Source: Octopus vulgaris (Eukaryota). From it: a stretch of DNA of 64,000 nucleotides. Position numbers and translations under genes: made by a program. This document shows, one piece after another, positions 8,025-59,305 of this stretch. Location of the stretch: assembly GCA_951406725.2 (NCBI GenBank), contig OX597814.1, forward strand, positions 38,254,001 through 38,318,000, in the 5' to 3' direction. Every line of letters begins with the position of its first letter. Position 1 is the stretch's first letter. The notes below the pieces were generated by a model that did not search any database, was not told the origin of the DNA, and saw nothing but the letters and a program-made list of their open reading frames with translations.

Positions 8025-8600
8025 ATTTACTTGTACTTGTGGCGACATTCACCCTGGGCGGGTTGAGTCGGCTTCTTCTACCACCCTCGAGGCATCTCGA
8101 ACCATGGCAGCCCACGCTCGACGGTCCTTCGCTAGTTCACTGGAGATAGCTAGCCAGTCACGGTTCCATCGGCGCAGGCCGACCACCTGCGGTCCCGTGA
8201 GTACAGTGAGGTCCTCCTTGATTGTCGTAACCCAGGTCTTCAGCTGCCCACTCGCGCGTTTCCGCCAGTTGGGAAGTGGAGTTGGGCGAAGGACATCACG
8301 GCTCAGTTCACGCACCGGGCGCCTACATGCATGGCCAAACCACCGCAAGCGCCGTTGCAGAAGGACAGATGGAAGGGGCCGCAGAAACAGGCGAAGTCGG
8401 TGATTGGCGAAGGGAACTCGATCCACCCGACGGCAGCGAAGAATGCACCGGACGCAGTCATTGTTGAAGACTTCTAGCTTTCGTTGATCGACCACCCGCA
8501 AAGGCCACGTTTCACAGCCATAGAGAAGTACTGTACGAACGACGGCCTGATATATTCGCCCTTTGGTAACCGATGAGATCTCCCTTCGGTCCCAAACTTC
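8025..8600 (-). mobile_element. 5'-truncated RTE-clade LINE, C-terminal part of the RT ORF
   Basis: Uninterrupted frame 8600-8049: WDRREISSVTKGRIYQAVVRTVLLYGCETWPLR...RRLRWFGHACRR...GQLKTWVTTIKEDL...AKDRRAW, which are RTE motifs. Short 3' tail (CAAGTA)2. 12-bp TSD aatgatttaagt at 8013-8024 and 8646-8657. Much more GC-rich than the flanks. Confidence 0.93.
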
Positions 8601-11486
8601 ACGTACTGATTAGCATTCTACATATGTAAACGCTATTAAAATTTTAATGATTTAAGTGACACTATAAGGCAAACATGTTCGTGATGTTTCCTCTAAATAG
8701 AGCTTATGCAACCCAGTCATAGGTTAGTACAAGAACTAATACCTAACAATATTTTGCTGAAATATACTCTATGAGGTGTTATAATCTCAGGTGCTTTGGA
8801 CAATATATATCTAAATCTATAATGTATGCAGTAAATACTGCAATCGTATTCAATAATTAATGAGAACCAGGGAAAACATGAAATCATTTCCTCTACTCTG
8901 ACGAACAGTGCTAGAGCAATTTAGCAACTGAAAGTTTATGAAACAAAGTTTGTAGTATCTTATGTGAGCCTTGGTACTTTTCACTCTTTCATTAGTCAAC
9001 TAGTTAGGCATTTAACTAATGAACTTATTGCTTGTTTGATTAATCAAGTAGGTTCATCAATGTCATAATGTTGCAATTACGGATCTCACCAATGACATCT
9101 TATTGCTTTTCTATGTCTTTCTATCTCAGTCGCCTATTGGTCCTACCAAATCTAAGAAAATCTGTTTCAATTCTCAAATTTGCCAAAAAAAATGCGAAAC
9201 CGAAATATTCTTCAACACAACAGACAATACGATATTTTCCTTTCTTGTTTTTGTACTTAATTACATAAATGGATTCAACAGGTTAGACTGTAAAACATTT
9301 AAGTCTATAAACAACTTCTAAATACCACATTACTGTATTTAAATGAATCGACATTAAAGTATATGATACATACTTGCATCGGAAGCAATTTACATAACAA
9401 ACACTTAATATATGTTTGGTTAATTAAAAGTGAAATAACTAATTTGCATCTATAGAATGGTATAAGATTTAATCGAAAGAATGTAAATAGTCAACTTATA
9501 AACTGCATAGTAGACTTGTAAATGTTCGCATTATTTGGTGAAAAAGAAAAAAATATTACAAATAAAATAGTGAACAGACAGTATGAATTGTTGAGAACAA
9601 TGTAATTAATTAGCCACTGTAAATAATGAACGCATATTAGTTTATATTAAATAATTATGCTTCTTTTTACAATCTGTTTCGTGAAGTTGGTATTATAATT
9701 TCGCATATTGATTGCTAATAAATTTGATATTGGTAAGTCTTAATAAGGAAAATAAGTGAAACTGTGTCCCTGACGTCATTTTATCTTGCAAATGTGCATG
9801 AGCAATTGTTTATATGCCTTTACTCTTTAACCTTAACATATCTCCATGTTTATGCTCATTTTCAACCGACGTTCGTTTATTTTATTATAAAGTAGAATGT
9901 ATTTTTCAGTATGATAACGTTTAAATTTATGGCAAATTCTATTCACATATTTTTATTAATGCACTTATACATTTTCTTTGGTGTATTGTGAGCCATATGA
10001 ATTAAATACGCTCCTTTGTACAAATACACAGCCACAGACAAAAAGGATTATATTAATGCAATTACTTCTGAAATCCATATACAAAATGTAGCATCCAAGT
10101 ACAAAATGATTATCGCTATTGAACTATTTTTATATCTTACAATACGAATACATATAATGAATATAAAAATCAGTGACTGTTAAGTTCGATCTAAAAATAA
10201 CATATACTCCGATATCCAGTTACTCTAAATGAACGTTAGGAGTAGATGTTGTATAAATGTAATTCAAATTCTATTTCTTTTTTTTCTTTTTCATAAAAAT
10301 TGGTAGTAGTATATAGCGTGATGCAATTTCATTGTTTATAAATTCTTCAACTGAACTCCATGTTCTCCAAACATTAATAAGTTCTTCCATTTATCTAAGT
10401 TTATAACGAGCTCTAACGAGGCATTTGTGCTATTCAAATGGTTTGCTTGAAAATAGTGCTTAAGAAATATTTGTAAAATGCACACGATAAAGATACCCTA
10501 AAGAGAAATCAGAGTTGCACTGAATTTGAACTGATTTATCTCCTTAGTTTCGTCATTAGACAAATTTATAATGTGGAAAATAAGACATAGGAATATGAAT
10601 GAAGTTATTGTGTACAGAAGAAAATATGATAATCGTGTGCTATTGCCATTTTTGAAATGAAAGGAAAGGCAAACTATTTGAATTGTGATAAAAATCAAAA
10701 CAAATCAAAATAAAGTTATTGAAACAAATAACGGAATTAGTTCACTACATTTTCTAAACGAAAAACGGGGAATATTGAATGTATTGTTTAGAATTCAATT
10801 AATAATTTTGCATTACTTCCAAAGTGAAACTAATGGTTATCTCTATTTTTATATAATATCTAAAGTTACAAAGATTCTGTAATTATAGTAACATCCATTA
10901 ATATATTTGCATTTTGATTTCGCAAATCTTTCTAACAGATTTCACATGATGGCTCTACTACATAACGCATTACGACATGGCAGACATAAATTATGAATAC
11001 AAGAGTAAAAGACATAAAAGCAGTTCTACATTATTATACTGCAGGTGGATATTTTGTTTTTCTTTCGCAAATTTGTAATCTCACGTTTTACAATACTATG
11101 AAATTGATTTCAGAATCTTAGTGTTACTTATTATATCCACCATACATTAATGAAACATAAATTCGACCCTAAAAGGATTTTAACTCAGAATATACGATTG
11201 AAAATAATACAAACATTTGGCAGTTAACCCATCAATCTATAGTTTATTTCAAATTCTGAGTTACATGTTTTGAATTTTTTTTTAAAGAATCATCATGTTA
11301 TATACACACAGTAGGATTAATTTAATATCTCATTCAGTTAGAGAGTTTCAGATGTTGGAATTTCAGATTCGGTGTTTAAACTTCATTTCACTCTTGCTCT
11401 GTATTCCCGTTCAGTCTATTCATGTTGTTATTTTATATAACGATAATGAATTCTTGTTACAACTGTACACCATTTCTCCCAAATAA

Positions 11487-13823: not shown

Positions 13824-15584
13824 GTGTATATATACACGCACATTCCTGCACACTCTCACATATATTTACCTCTCTCTCTATATATTTATCTACTATGTGG
13901 CTAATAAAGAAACATATCTATCTATCAATATATATAAATACGTGTGTGTGTGTGTGTGCGTGTAAGCATATACGGATGATGTATGAAAGGATCATGGAGG
14001 TACAGTTATACTCAATTGCTTTCCGCAAATTGAAATGAATTCTTGTGAATTTATATATATTTTACTACATTCGACTTGATGCAAAATGAGAGATATTTAT
14101 GCAATTTATGGTAGAATATATAGAATCTATCCTATGCTAACCTGCACTGCACAAAGAACTACAGTCGATAATAAATTAAATCGATCATTGTATACCTATA
14201 AAACATCATGAACAAGTAACTGCTTGCTTTAGAAAATAGCTCATTTGTATTCGCTATACTAGCTTTCCTACACATAAATGCACGGAGTAATTCTTCAATG
14301 TACATGTATCAATCAAATGAAATTTCGTGTAAATAAAAATTATATTTTTATGTTTTGATGTTATTAATGTAAAAATTGAACAGAGATTTAAACAAAATCA
14401 CATTCCTAACAGAAGAAATCATGAAAATATTCTAACGCAATTTGTAAATGCAAATGTCTGCATCTCCCTGTTCTGATATTTGCTGTAACAACAGAAACAA
14501 GGTATAGGGAATGTAAATAATACATATATAAATGTGTATATGTGTGTGTGTGTGTGTAAGCTTGAATGTGTGTGCGTGTGTGTGCCTATGTGTGTGTGTG
14601 ATTGTGTGCGTATAGGTGTGTGTGTTTGTGTGTAGGCATATATTTACATTCAATTATAATTGGAATTTGAACATATAATATAGCATGCAAAGAAAACGAG
14701 CACAAAATGATATAAAAAAACAGGCATTTAAGTATCCTTTCACATATAATGCACACTTACATAACGAAACACAATGTGCATTTCATACATGACAAGAACG
14801 AAAGAAATTCAATATACTATCCCAATAAATGTAAACGTAAACATTTCGATTCTCCTATAAATAAATAAAAAAAACATCTTATTGAAAAACAAATATTAAA
14901 CATAAGAACATTTATTACAACAAAAAATCAAATATCAACGATCACTGCCGTGAATAATGGTGTGTTACAGCTAGGTTGCAACGTTATTTCTAGTTATAGA
15001 ATCATTTTAAAATCAGTGAATATGTTATAAATAATATTTTGTCCTTTTTTTTCTCTCTTTTGGTAAACTTATTTACGTGCAACTTGATTAAAATGGAATA
15101 TAAACAATTGTATCGAAATCTTGGAAATAAAATGCAACGCTAACCGTAAATAAATATTGGTAATGCCTTAATTTGTGTGAGTTTGGTTTAGAATTAATGC
15201 TACGAGATGGACCGACTGAAGGAAATCCTTCTAAGAAACTATGTGACGGAACCCAAATATACATTTGTTTCAAAACGATAACCATATCATTTGTCTTTCA
15301 AGGTTTTATAAAACATTCTCACAAATAATCAAAAACATTACTGACCTGAAACCTATTTGGATCATTTGGATTCGTCAACACATAGAAAAAACACACACAC
15401 ACATATATATATATATTTATATATATATTGGCAGGGCTAGACTGCTAGGTAGTCGGCCGTATGCTAGACATAGATCATGAACGATCAAACTACAAAGAAA
15501 GTTCTCTGGAGGAAAAATTCAGCGAACACCAGAACCAAATTTGGCGGGCAGGACAAATGAAAATGTATATAAAAAACATAATTA

Positions 15585-15661
15585 ATTGCATACCTCAGTT
15601 TTGGCCTTTAACAAAATAATTACTTACATAATTCAAATATCCGTGGCTTCATCAGTGGAAT
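15585..15661 (-). ncRNA. Degenerate type I hammerhead ribozyme copy
   Basis: Minus strand attcca CTGATGA agcc...ggcc AAAAC tgag GTA tgcaat. G12 is lost (CpG-type change) and stem I has a mismatch, so it is probably inactive. Confidence 0.6.
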
Positions 15662-16167
15662 CGTTCAGTGTAAATGCAATTTGTAAAAACTAACCCCAGT
15701 TTTCTGTGCCAAGAGAGACACGTGCTTAGTTTTACCGATTACATTAGGGATAAAATTTCAAATGTCTTAGTACCGGCGTGCTAAGAAATTCCTGAAGCGA
15801 AGAACTGCAGTAAATAATTCACTGCGGTTTGTGCTTGCTACTAGAGGACGTATTTATTTCAATATTTAAATAATGAGGGAGATAAATTAATATTAATTTT
15901 AATATCAATTTAGAAACCAGTAGTCCAGCATACAAAAAATCTGAGAAGTCAGAGAAAATTCTAATATATGTGTATATTGGCAGGGAAACACTGCTAGGTA
16001 GTCTGCCGTAGGCTAGAAATAGATCATCAACGATCAAACTACAAAGAAAGTTCTCTAGAGGAAAAATTCAGCGAACACCAGAACCAAATTTGGCGGGCAG
16101 GACAGATGAAAATTTATATAAAAAACAGAAGTAATTGCATACTTCAGTTTGCAATATACACTGAACG

Positions 16168-16244
16168 ATTGCACTGATGAAGCCACGGACATTTGAATTA
16201 TGTAAGTAATTATTTCGTTAAAGGCCGAAACCGAGGTATGCAAT
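16168..16244 (+). ncRNA. Type I hammerhead ribozyme motif (minimal stem III)
   Basis: Stem I attgca 16168-73 / tgcaat 16239-44; core CTGATGA 16174-80; stem II agcc/ggcc with 38-nt loop; GAAA 16227-30; stem III AC-CGAG-GT; cleavage triplet GTA 16236-38. There is an A-C mismatch at the 10.1-11.1 pair. Confidence 0.78.
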
Positions 16245-16327
16245 TAATTCTGTTTTTTTATATAAATGTTCATCTGTCCTGCCCGCCAAATTTGGTTCTG
16301 GTGTTCGCTGAATTTTTCCTCTAGAGA

Positions 16328-17396
16328 TCTTTCAAAATGACATGCTGTACTGCTTTGTGTTTTATCTGTAATCTCCAATACGAACAATTCAGAGTGTTTG
16401 GGTATCAATCTGAGGACAGTGCAGAGGATTTTGAAAGAGTTGGATGAGTCTAATGAAGATTAAGAAGGTACAGCAGCTCAGAAAGATCACTCTGATTGTT
16501 CTGATGAGAAAAGAACTCGTTTGTGAGATCCAGGCCGTGACTGACAACGATCTATCCGAGTCAATGTGGTCCGTCGCCAGAGACACGGGAGTCGCTGACG
16601 TTTATATCAGTCAGGTACTGCAATATGACATTCGGTATTCCTCAGATAAAATGAGAAATGGCTAATTTTTTTTATTTCAAGCCATCAAGGACAATAGGAG
16701 AGACCATGCTACCAAGCTTTGGATCACACTCATGCATCTTCTCCAACTGAACATGCTTTGGTTTTTCACAGGCGAGAAAAAACCTGCCAGCATGAGATGG
16801 TACCGAGAGTGATAAAAATCAAGCATCTAGTCAATATCATGTTGTTTGGAGTGATTACTAGTGATAGCAAATTTATGCCTCCATTCATCTTCCCATACGG
16901 TCTCTGACTTAACAGAGTGCCTGGAGGAGTTATTACTGCCCTGAAGGAATAGGGTTGCTGCTGGAAGACCCTATGTTTGGCGAAATGACTCTGCACCATG
17001 CCACACGAGCAGGAGACCCCAGTCAAGGCAGTCAGACAATTTCTGCTAGCATATCATCCCTAACATCTTGCCAAATAACACCATTGATTACAGCCCCCTT
17101 AATTAATATGTGTGGGGTGCAATTGAGTGGGAGGCCAAGAGAACTCTTTTTAACACTAAAGAATAACTGAAGGAAATGATTATAGCTTAAACAAGGAGAC
17201 CACCCAGAAGATTTGCAGGAGTTTCCAAAGACTTCTGGAGATCGTAGTTGAAGGCAATAACGATTTTTTTGGAATAAATTTACTCTAGTATTTCAAGATA
17301 GTTTATGTTATATTGGCAGAAATATCTATTAAAATGAGATATCAGTGTTATTTTCATTGTTGCATAATTTAGACAATTTATTCAACGCACCTTGTA
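16328..17396 (+). mobile_element. Decayed Tc1/mariner-superfamily DD37D (maT-like) transposon, 5' end missing
   Basis: Broken frames give KHLVNIMLFGVITSDSKFMPPFIFPYGL and GRPYVWRNDSAPCHTSRR...IDYSPLN*YVWGAIE, with 37 residues between the second and (decayed) third catalytic Asp. Right end ...ttcaacgcaccttg followed by TA. Confidence 0.88.
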
Positions 17397-17935
17397 TAAA
17401 TATGTATTACACACACACATCCACACACTCACACAAACACACACACATACATACATATAAATATATATGTGTGTGTGTGTGTACGAGCGTGTGTGTAAGA
17501 GACAGAGATAACCAATATCAAGACATTCGATTTGTGTTTCATTGTTTTTGATAAGTGACCTTGGAACAAGAAATTTAACATTTTCAGGGTATGATTTTAC
17601 AATAATAACCTTCCATATAATAAATATTCTTATTTGAACAGCTTATTAGGATGAGGGATCGAATTTCGAGAAAGCACAATTCCAAGAAATTAAATATATT
17701 GAGAACAATTTTCCGCGCGCTACATATTGATTACTAACATTATACAGAATTTATCCTAATCTTTAAATAATCAGGTTGAATTCGAAATATAATAACGCTG
17801 AGTGTTTATGTGAGAATATGCATAACCGTTATCGAAAATGTATTATCCAGTGTGTTGTATTATTGATTTCATACTATCATTTGCTTATACAGCAATACTC
17901 AAACGGATTATTTTTCTGGATAAGCTATGAGTTAC

Positions 17936-42481: not shown

Positions 42482-42538
42482 GCCATAGACCGATTTCAAG
42501 TTTAGGGATTCAATAGCCTTCATCATCATCAGTATGAC
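42482..42538 (-). ncRNA. Degenerate type I hammerhead motif (second family); more decayed inverted copy at 43602-43657 (+)
   Basis: Minus strand gtcata CTGATGA ... GAAA T CG GTC tatggc, with a 6-bp stem I (one G-U) and near-palindromic stem III. Stem II is eroded. Confidence 0.55.
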
Positions 42539-57117: not shown

Positions 57118-59305
57118 TAGCTCGTTGCAAAGAAACCAAAGATGGTAAAATACGACCGAAGAATGAAGGGTTACTACCAGAATAGTTATTCAGGGTAGAT
57201 CAGAGGAGATTCTATAAAGAAATAGATGGAGTATGTACGAATGAAATGATGATAGCAGATAACATTGAAAGTAAAAGGTTTTGAAGTGACATCTGGAGCA
57301 AATACAAGGAGCACTAGAAGGATGTCGAATGGTTGCAAGAATTGAAACAGGAAGAACTAGTGATTTCAGTTAGGGAAGTAAAAGAAATTAGCAGAAGAAT
57401 TCGCAACTGGAAGGCCCCGGGACTAGCTGGAGTTCAAGGCTACTGGATCAAAATATTTGGTGAATGACACCTTGTTAAATGCCGACGAAGCAACACCAGA
57501 GTGGTTGACATTGGGTAGGGCAGCACTGTACCTGTAAATCATCAAAAAAGGCAATACGGTAAACAATTACAGGCCGATATCCTGTTTGCCACTTCTGTGG
57601 AGGTTATTGGCTGAAATACACGCAGTTAATATACGAACATCTAGAAAAAAATAGAATCCTGCCACGAACAGTAGGGCAGTGGTACCAAGGATGGACACCT
57701 GATAGATAAAACTGTATTGAGAGACTGCAAGAGAAGGAAAAGTAACATAGCCATGCCATGGATCGACTATCGAAAGGCGTACGATATAATCCCACATTCT
57801 TGGATTATGGAGTGTATGAACCTGTTTGGGATTGCCTCTAATGTTGAGCGATTGCTTGGTAAAAAATATGGAGAATTAGAAGACGGACATCACAGCAGAA
57901 ATTAGGAGGGGCAACTATCGAGAGGACTGCTTCTCCCCACTGATCTTTGTATTGTGCTTGATAACACTAACACTGATTCTGAGGAAAGCAAAAGCTGTGT
58001 ATGTATTAAAAAGCCGCCAACAAAAACTCAACTATTTGCTATTCATTGATGACTTCAAACTTTATCGCAAAGATCAAGCCCAAGTCAGTTCTCTCGTTGA
58101 TACGGTTTATACCTTCGGTACTGTTATCAGAATGGAGTTCCCACTGAGAAAGTGTGTTGTGTTAGTATTGAAATGAGGCAAAATCAAATGTATAATCGGA
58201 ATAACGACACCGTCGGCGGACGTTATGAAGCGGATTGAAGAGACGGGCTATAAGTACTTGGGGATTTTGGAAATGGATAAATAATGGTGAAAGAAATGAC
58301 AGAAAATTTTAAGGCGGAGTACTTGCGCAGACAGAGACTGATCCTAATGTCGAAAGTAAACGGAAGGAATAAGATCGAAGCTATCAACTCCTGAACAGTT
58401 TCACTCCTTAGATATGGAGCAGGGGTAATTGAATGGATACTAGACGAACTAAACAGCTTAGACAGAAAGATAAGGAAGTTGCTAACTAGATATGGTTCAC
58501 TGCACCCAAAACGTGACAGAGACAGACTGTAGGCAACAAGAAAAAGAAGGGAAAGAGGACTTACGGGATGCGAACACAGTCAAAAATGCCACACAACCAC
58601 TATTATTAGCAGTAGGAAGGTCAGGCTTGTGTAGGATAAAAAATTGTAAAGATAACGCACTATAGAAGAAATTGAAAACGAATGATACTGAAAATAAATG
58701 GGTGAAGAAAATAATGCATGGTCAATTTCATAGGGAGGTTGAAGATAAGAAAGTCGGAGAAAAAAGATGAGTGTGGATGACTAAAAGTTATTTAAACACG
58801 GAAACTGAGGCCCTAATCTGTGCTGCCCAAGAGCAAGCACTAACGAAAAAACTACATAAAATACAAAGTAGACAACACATCAGAAGGTATAAGTGCAAAA
58901 ACGGTTGACAAAACGGTGTCGCCTTATGGCATATTACCAGCCAATGTACGCCAATAGGTCAGAAGGAGTATAAGAGACGCCACGACAATATAGCCAGGTT
59001 TGTCCACTGGACACTTTGCAACAAGCATGGACTTGATAGAGGATAACCTTGGTACAATCACAGACCTGAAGGCATTGTCGAAAAAAAAATGCAAAGATCT
59101 TCTGGGATTTTATAATTTAGTACGACCATGAGATTGAAAATAGGAAGCCGGACATAGTCTTAATTGAGAAAGAAAACAAACTATGCTGGATCACAGATAT
59201 AGCATGCCCAGCTGGCAACAAGGTATGTGATGATGAAGAAAGTAAAGCTGAGAGATATGGCAGGTTAGCTTGGGGAGTTAAGCAGTTGAAAATTGGAAAA
59301 ATGTA
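57118..59305 (+). mobile_element. Decayed R4/Dong-clade non-LTR retrotransposon (RT plus RLE)
   Basis: Motifs [117 protein letters not shown]...DIACP. Many stops and frameshifts. Confidence 0.93.

Follow-up and report, generated by a model that had tools for sequence, protein, structure and literature searches.

A non-coding 549-nt hammerhead repeat in Octopus vulgaris, likely inserted into a (TA)n run by Penelope-like machinery

A 64,000-nt stretch of the Octopus vulgaris genome (contig OX597814.1, positions 38,254,001 to 38,318,000; hereafter the window) carries a repeat element built from a 549-nt unit that includes a type I hammerhead ribozyme. We propose that it is a dead insertion of a multi-copy family free of open reading frames (ORFs), likely written into a (TA)n run in trans by a Penelope-like element (PLE), and that it belongs with the non-autonomous, hammerhead-bearing PLE derivatives; we hold this reading to be probable. 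The element consists of a full copy (A), a truncated tandem copy (B) and an inverted copy (C), and ends in (TA)n. Its tandem joint is fixed in the family, the entire unit is covered there, the hammerhead core is intact in the majority letters and no ORF is present. The family behaves like a non-long-terminal-repeat (non-LTR) retrozyme moved by Penelope machinery, and the locus is not an autonomous PLE.

Repeat layout

In the ribozyme sense, copy A reads from 15974 to 15426, copy B from 16150 to 15975 and copy C from 16149 to 16333:

15426..15974, minus strand: copy A, full 549-nt non-coding unit, 34.8% GC; differs from the family majority by 15 substitutions and one extra letter
15975..16150, minus strand: copy B, 5'-truncated tandem copy of 176 nt in the pseudo-LTR position; its start falls within the hammerhead, 11 nt ahead of the cut
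16149..16333, plus strand: copy C, inverted 5'-truncated copy of 185 nt; lacks the 3'-terminal 71 nt of the unit

A direct repeat (15415-15601 and 15964-16150; spacing 549, 91% alike) and an inverted repeat (15497-15679 and 16333-16149; 92% alike) define this arrangement, which totals 549+176 nt, or 1.32 units, plus the inverted 185-nt piece. Copies B and C stand back to back with a 2-nt overlap (16149-16150), and copy B is without a hammerhead core because it starts inside the motif. No further copy of the unit was found elsewhere in the window. A reading made beforehand from the letters of the window (the sequence-only reading) had described a non-coding unit of about 549 bp in 1.3 tandem copies plus an inverted segment, and the repeats confirm this; the end that it gave, 16327, has to be moved to 16333.

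Over the 105 nt common to all three copies, A and B have 99 identical letters, A and C 98, and B and C 100. The copies thus differ by 5-7%, and are therefore not the product of an assembly duplication. At 15556/16105/16274, B and C have in common a letter that is absent from A and from the listed family variant; this may be due to gene conversion across the fold-back.

The family in sequencing runs

Part of the stretch is present in 20 of the 24 sequencing runs listed (9 studies, 4 organism labels), none of which holds half of its words. The family was surveyed in runs X1, X3, X9 and X8 (4 studies, 3 organism labels), with all contigs placed on the monomer at 80% likeness. Contigs matching the monomer numbered 990, 696, 230 and 92, respectively, and covered 29 of 29 bins in each run; they are short, and contig depth is not equivalent to copy number. 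The tandem joint, 15974 into 15426, was recovered in all four runs (short side of 33, 36, 18 and 18 letters, respectively) and a variant joint in two of them; another seven spacer variants occur in X1 and X3. The share of contigs continuing into unlike sequence was 0 in X1 and X3, 0.01 in X9 and 0.1 in X8. At the unit's 3' end the loose ends of X3, among those listed, lead into (TA)n or the tandem junction.

The 39 listed substitution sites comprise 15 that are near-fixed against copy A (at least 90% in X1, X3 and X9) and 24 that are polymorphic. Five of the 15 lie in the ribozyme, where the majority letter restores G12, a stem I G-C pair and a helix III C-G pair, and strengthens helix II; copy C carries the majority letter at four of these five. 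At the fifth, 15617, copies A and C have a common letter nearly absent from the family, which points to one template. The majority letters give a complete hammerhead core in all four runs. The remaining core positions are invariant at the 20% level, which is not significant for 13 positions given 24 polymorphic sites in 549 nt. Position 10.1 is a G in 25%, 37% and 24% of the depth in X1, X3 and X9, respectively, and also in the single X8 contig; elsewhere it is an A facing C.

Two X8 contigs depart from the rest. One, with a loose end at 15608, has GCAA instead of GUAA as the helix II tetraloop (both GNRA); another departs at 15689 and contains a diverged stretch upstream of stem I, with linked variants at 15709, 15731 and 15736. 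Judged by these letters, they would represent at least one sister subfamily.

The hammerhead motif

Two hammerheads are present at the locus, on opposite strands:

16168..16244, plus strand: type I hammerhead in copy C with a complete core; predicted cut after 16238
15585..15661, minus strand: decayed hammerhead of copy A: an A replaces G12 (15602), C faces C in stem I (15658) and one pair of helix III is weakened (15597)

In copy C the two strands of stem I (16168-16173 and 16239-16244) enclose CTGATGA (16174-16180), a 46-nt helix II domain (16181-16226) with a GUAA tetraloop at its end, GAAA (16227-16230), a pseudo-palindromic helix III of the form ACC-GA-GGT (16230-16237), and A17 at 16238. 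The pair 10.1·11.1 is an A·C mismatch. The sequence-only description of this motif as near-canonical holds for the complete core and the cut after 16238, but not for the 46-nt helix II and the A·C at 10.1·11.1. The decayed copy that it had also reported is real, with G12 altered and a mismatch in stem I; its strand, which had been left unstated, is the minus strand, opposite to copy C. The family majority letter is intact at 15602, 15658 and 15597, where copy A is broken.

CTGATGA occurs once per strand at the locus, on the minus strand without GAAAC, and two consecutive complete ribozymes on the same strand, the mark of an 'active' locus for Li, Clavereau & Pollet (2026 preprint, 10.64898/2026.07.22.740005), do not occur here. 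Using a strict hammerhead descriptor, the thresholds of which were fixed only after the motif had been seen, the copy C motif was the sole site in 64 kb and none of 100 dinucleotide shuffles matched. With looser descriptors 3, 6, 10 and 58 of 100 whole-window shuffles matched, which equals 0.0006-0.011 expected per 908 nt. An extra site at 42532 (minus strand) was found by the loosest descriptor only and is within chance. In Rfam, no family reached the gathering score in the 64-kb window, and no hammerhead model was among the seven matches with E<=10 in 15300-16500; the microRNA-model matches at E<=10 merely reflect the B-C fold-back. The motif of the sequence-only reading is retrieved by descriptor and missed by Rfam.

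In its context the stem I of copy C has a predicted pairing probability of 0.0, with or without copy B, and its ribozyme is predicted to be trapped in the B-C fold-back hairpin. Since the core of copy A is mutated and copy C is trapped, the locus should release no monomer or circle. Cleavage of copies A and C at this locus would probably fail, and would be uninformative about the family.

Predicted RNA structure

For folding, the majority version was obtained by applying the 15 majority letters and one deletion to copy A. In its ribozyme region, stems I and II form in an unconstrained fold (stem I p 0.98-1.0 for five of six pairs), compared with a stem I p of 0.05 or less in copy A. Helix II is predicted to be a GUAA-capped hairpin, of which the G10.1 type closes the full 4-bp stem; the ribozyme region of that type gave z -2.95. 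Helix III has p<=0.05 in the monomer and is predicted to pair with a second copy at -6.6 kcal/mol, which corresponds to the dimer-dependent type described in PMC4209133. According to this model helix III would form only between two copies, and only tandem transcripts would cut.

Folded as a circle, the majority unit scored -135.2 vs -106.0 +/- 6.5 for shuffles, with 0 of 100 as good (z -4.5), and 11 control stretches ranged from z -2.3 to +1.7 (15 sampled, four microsatellite ones skipped; 14 shuffles each). In a 30-shuffle run the sense circle of the whole unit reached z -5.8 and copy A z -2.95. The predicted shape is a rod of nested helices that has the ribozyme and the AU-rich junction at its opposite poles. 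Its parts include:

15680..15850, minus strand: upstream arm of the predicted rod in the majority version; 15750-15850 pairs with 15500-15570, and 15673-15745 folds on itself
15963..15978, minus strand: head-to-tail junction B/A, AT-only/CA-rich; far pole of the predicted rod (helix 15429/15963)

In the cut-to-cut monomer stem I is predicted at p 0.97-0.99 for five of six pairs and the ribozyme is left free. An AT-rich, near-perfect palindrome in the unit (15883-15912) is predicted to form a 13-bp hairpin (p 0.98).

Eleven of the 15 near-fixed sites are paired in the rod, and copy A breaks nine of the eleven; two of the other four are G12 and helix III. Changing copy A to the majority gains -12.3 kcal/mol, and the best of 60 random sets of 15 letter changes gained -7.0. 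Within the folding model this shows a structured parent sequence eroded in the local copy; selection is not proven by it.

Coding capacity and rejected identities

The longest sense stop-to-stop frame in the majority dimer is 53 amino acids. None of nine frames over the element (41 frames scanned in all) reached the Pfam cut-off, and phmmer found no relatives of a 45-amino acid antisense frame among 1.84 billion proteins. The ORF with reverse transcriptase (RT) and GIY-YIG domains that characterizes an autonomous endonuclease-positive (EN+) PLE is absent. A GIY-YIG remnant, suggested by the look of a plus-strand peptide (15449-15619/15998-16177), was rejected, as Pfam gave no such family and phmmer no match. 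No transfer RNA head, as in a short interspersed element (SINE), was found.

An intron was also considered, since the letters at 15681-15688 resemble an acceptor and those of the tetraloop a donor, but no skipping joint was found in any of the four runs. In the majority letters a T-run plus CAG resembling a splice acceptor (15680-15688, minus strand) lies exactly at the start of copy C, and a GUAAGU resembling a donor overlaps with the tetraloop of helix II. The intron of the Drosophila Penelope ends at helix I (PMC4209133).

Hammerhead-pattern scans gave no match in a viral collection, none in prokaryote genomes and two in metagenomes. The latter (L001 and L002; 60% and 71% GC) are unrelated, their likeness to the unit being confined to 13-14 pattern letters. 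Naiad_Ovul, listed as preferring (TA)n and as having 35-50 nt between the halves of its core, was examined as a partner element and rejected because its 3' end is unlike the unit by eye. A 10-letter 3'-end motif of the unit is absent from the Naiad, Chlamys and Hydra files (PMC8557442), in which line breaks could hide it.

Insertion footprint and proposed mechanism

Craig et al. 2021 (PMC8557442) describe PLE insertions as partially tandem, in many cases flanked on the 5' side by a copy that is inverted and 5'-truncated, and report a (TA)n preference for several clades. The (TA)n inserters listed there include all 21 Repbase and six novel Hydra families with a stated preference (one Hydra row is without an entry) and all five cephalopod Naiads. 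The present element has a partial tandem, an adjacent inverted 5'-truncated copy at its 5' end and a (TA)n target. At its 3' end lies the following feature, likely the insertion target to judge from its letters:

15392..15428, no strand: (CA)n/(TA)n microsatellite; (TA)n is also found past this end in X3 loose ends

We propose that the reverse transcriptase and endonuclease of an autonomous PLE, acting in trans, would nick (TA)n DNA, and that the nicked target would prime at the AU-rich junction of the unit; we infer that 15963..15978 is the priming site. The complementary DNA (cDNA) would then span 1.32 units, A followed by B, after which the second target strand would prime a second cDNA, copy C, and the two cDNAs would be joined over 2 nt. 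Such a template must have been longer than the unit, either a circle or an incompletely cut multimer, because a linear cut-to-cut monomer has only 165 nt upstream of the junction; these two templates are not separable from this locus. In this model, dimer-dependent cutting would release the 549-nt cut-to-cut monomer, perhaps ligated into a circle. The end of copy B 11 nt past the cut site is a single observation that may be due to chance. The copies would afterwards have decayed by about 3%, and a later deletion likely took the last 71 nt of copy C and the left end of the neighbouring transposon.

The sequence-only reading had proposed a non-autonomous, self-cleaving family, possibly producing circular RNA and mobilised by Penelope. 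The multi-copy head-to-tail organization, the footprint and the majority core speak in its favour; it is not supported at this locus, with its one CTGATGA per strand and a copy C predicted to be trapped.

It is also possible, though on balance unlikely, that a 549-nt rod-shaped, ribozyme-processed circular RNA, common to several related species (cephalopods, should the attribution of the sequence-only reading hold), serves directly as the retrotransposition template. A Penelope enzyme that targets (TA)n would prime inside the circle at its AU-rich pole and roll for more than one round, leaving the footprint of 1.3 units plus an inversion. If so, long-helix-II A·C hammerheads, missed by Rfam and by short-loop descriptors, would be an uncounted, abundant class of element, and the circular-template model of Penelope tandems could be tested directly on the family.

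Evidence to the contrary

Several observations weigh against an insertion by Penelope machinery of a ribozyme-processed family. Among the survey data, the short side of the joint measures just 18 letters in X9 and in X8, 177 further loose ends exist beyond those listed, and 57, 52, 16 and 9 contigs in X1, X3, X9 and X8, respectively, overrun the unit ends with their outer sequence unseen. No dimer with two whole ribozymes was found, and no contig listed spans one unit. At the locus itself no 30-40-nt tail was seen, the left end lying within the microsatellite and the right end being lost. Nor was a target-site duplication found; the longest word shared by the flanks is 5 nt and lies away from the ends. 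No autonomous partner was found among the Naiad, Chlamys and Hydra sequences compared.

As to the structure, the antisense unit also folds well (z -3.7, 30 shuffles), and the ribozyme region of the majority version does not stand out when folded by itself (z -1.5, 13 of 200 shuffles; antisense z -2.2). Since the rod was folded on majority letters, the pairing of these letters is partly built in. Compensatory stem changes, which the sequence-only reading had asked for in the family, are not seen: none of the 24 polymorphic sites shows a two-sided change, and the 12 that are paired (six keep the pair, six break it) have no variable partner.

As to the ribozyme, position 10.1 is an A, giving A·C, in 63-76% of the depth in X1, X3 and X9, the canonical G being in the minority. 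Both oddities of the ribozyme have precedent in PMC8557442: of the 26 Hydra-clade rows in File S2, 15 have an unpaired 10.1·11.1 by our count by eye, and the long helix II is matched by two spike-moss PLE-X rows alone, with a loop 2 of 28 and 35 nt. In the Hydra-clade rows, however, the mismatch is U·U or U·C, vs A·C here. The accessible parts of PMC2837043 and PMC544870 do not settle the effect of A·C at this position on activity. Finally, Li et al. 2026 report cleavage in only one of nine predicted retrozyme dimers.

Alternative explanations

The strongest alternative, which we consider improbable, is that the unit is merely the 5'-truncated 3' end (a long 3' untranslated region plus pseudo-LTR) of an ordinary autonomous PLE, with the ORF elsewhere in the family. 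Autonomous PLEs have the same footprint and ribozyme position, and Naiad_Obim and Naiad_Ovul possess non-coding 3' ends of about 1 kb (PMC8557442). Solo remains of truncated PLEs account for most minimal genomic hammerheads (PMC4209133), and 190 families of PLEs together occupy 6.83% of the O. vulgaris genome (PMC13282606). The contigs that overrun 15974, with their outer sequence unseen, leave room for this explanation. However, 5' truncation is random, whereas the 5' end of the unit is fixed and rejoins 15426 in all four runs under three organism labels. Coverage is undiminished toward the 5' end, almost no contigs in X1, X3 and X9 enter unlike sequence, and the predicted rod closes exactly on the two ends of the unit. 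No coding remnant was found in the frames, by Pfam or by phmmer.

Somewhat less probable still is a minisatellite that arose a single time out of an ancient pseudo-LTR and multiplied as DNA, its hammerhead and rod being inherited, non-cutting relics. Such a route was proposed by Li et al. 2026, in whose study eight of nine dimers were inactive, and it would agree with the majority A·C at 10.1·11.1 and with the lack of compensatory pairs. Unequal crossover would not, however, generate a dispersed copy of 1.32 units whose inverted 5' piece is attached through a 2-nt overlap and which terminates in (TA)n. Several subtypes exist side by side under three organism labels, and their majority retains an intact core.

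An assembly fold-back or chance local duplication with a fortuitous ribozyme motif has a negligible probability: the loosest descriptor does match 58 of 100 shuffled windows and the Rfam hammerhead models miss the motif, but the 5-7% differences among the copies, the restoration of the core by the majority where copy A is broken and, decisively, the presence of the family and its tandem joint in four separate studies refute it.

Neighbouring sequences

The window is AT-rich with many (TA)n, (CA)n and (GA)n runs, as would suit an animal genome. Adjoining copy C is:

16334..17398, plus strand: right flank outside the element; decayed fragment with its own left end missing and one putative terminal repeat

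From motifs in its translations we take this fragment to be Tc1/mariner-like; it gave no Pfam or protein match, and no partner for its putative terminal repeat lies in the window. A reverse-transcriptase fragment (57880-58173, plus strand; RVT_1, E 2.9e-5, below the cut-off) lies 41 kb off, is unlinked to the element and had no relative in a protein search. A weak DUF6451 match at 8052-8609 (minus strand; E 2.8e-4, below the cut-off) is probably another retroelement remnant. Two old inverted repeats (42356-42647/43493-43790 and 59413-59697/60361-60618), about 290 nt long, 73% alike and about 1 kb apart, are possibly the ends of DNA transposons.

Significance

The case for Penelope machinery behind animal retrozymes has so far been built on homology, co-occurrence and ribozymes held in common (PMC7229834; Li et al. 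2026). With its Penelope footprint, this hammerhead unit lacking an ORF adds support, at the level of the footprint, for retrotransposition in trans over DNA-level satellite growth. Moreover, the natural pair of subtypes (G-C vs A·C at 10.1·11.1) and the long helix II, which escapes standard models, make the dimer-cleavage and circular-template ideas testable. The concept is already in print, and the locus itself is dead.

Comparison with known systems

Non-LTR retrozymes were defined by Cervera & de la Peña 2020 (PMC7229834), who named PLEs as their likely mobilisers, and the hammerheads of pseudo-LTRs, with their dimer design and low activity, had been described earlier (Cervera & de la Peña 2014, PMC4209133). 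Li et al. 2026 argue that animal retrozymes are non-autonomous PLE derivatives, with units of 51-972 nt; no mollusc is among the classes sampled in the accessible part of that preprint. Given this argument, the choice between retrozyme and pseudo-LTR in the sequence-only reading is largely not a real split. Among cephalopods, the giant squid has 235 Hammerhead_1 matches (PMC6962438), and the accessible part of PMC13282606, on O. vulgaris, does not mention ribozymes. No published description of a cephalopod retrozyme family was found in a search that stopped short of Repbase, Dfam and the supplement of PMC7229834, the last of which may list one.

The non-autonomous Chlamys PLEs, such as MRC1, resemble the unit in being ORF-less and in their pseudo-LTRs, head-to-tail insertions and the microsatellite bias of their clade. 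They differ in that they occur in green algae, mostly lack a hammerhead and have 3' ends in common with known autonomous partners (PMC8557442).

With the pseudo-LTR hammerheads of EN+ PLEs, especially the Hydra clade, the element has in common the partial tandem, the inverted 5'-truncated copy and the (TA)n target, as well as a sense-strand ribozyme about 100-250 nt from the 3' end, a pseudo-palindromic AC..GT helix III and A at position 17. Unlike those elements, the unit contains no RT/GIY-YIG ORF and no 30-40-nt tail was seen. By eye it is also unlike the 3' ends of Naiad_Obim and Naiad_Ovul and the ribozyme listed for Hydra-1_Obim (PMC8557442).

Of the features of animal non-LTR retrozymes that could be checked, the unit lacks only a canonical helix II and, at this locus, a second ribozyme on the same strand. 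Like those retrozymes it is low in GC, codes for no protein, is joined head to tail, occurs in many copies and contains a single type I hammerhead; it also has a predicted high self-pairing that leaves the ribozyme free, and a short palindromic helix III of the dimer type. Its 549 nt exceed the ~170-400 nt given in PMC7229834 and fall within the range of Li et al. Its helix II is a 46-nt three-segment domain, vs 4 bp with a short loop contacting helix I in retrozymes, and the majority A·C at 10.1·11.1 likewise sets it apart. The inverted 5' piece and the (TA)n end of the locus are not met in the accessible retrozyme descriptions (PMC7229834; Li et al. 2026). While the non-autonomous-PLE/non-LTR-retrozyme kind is itself known, this 549-nt family is new as a further example of it.

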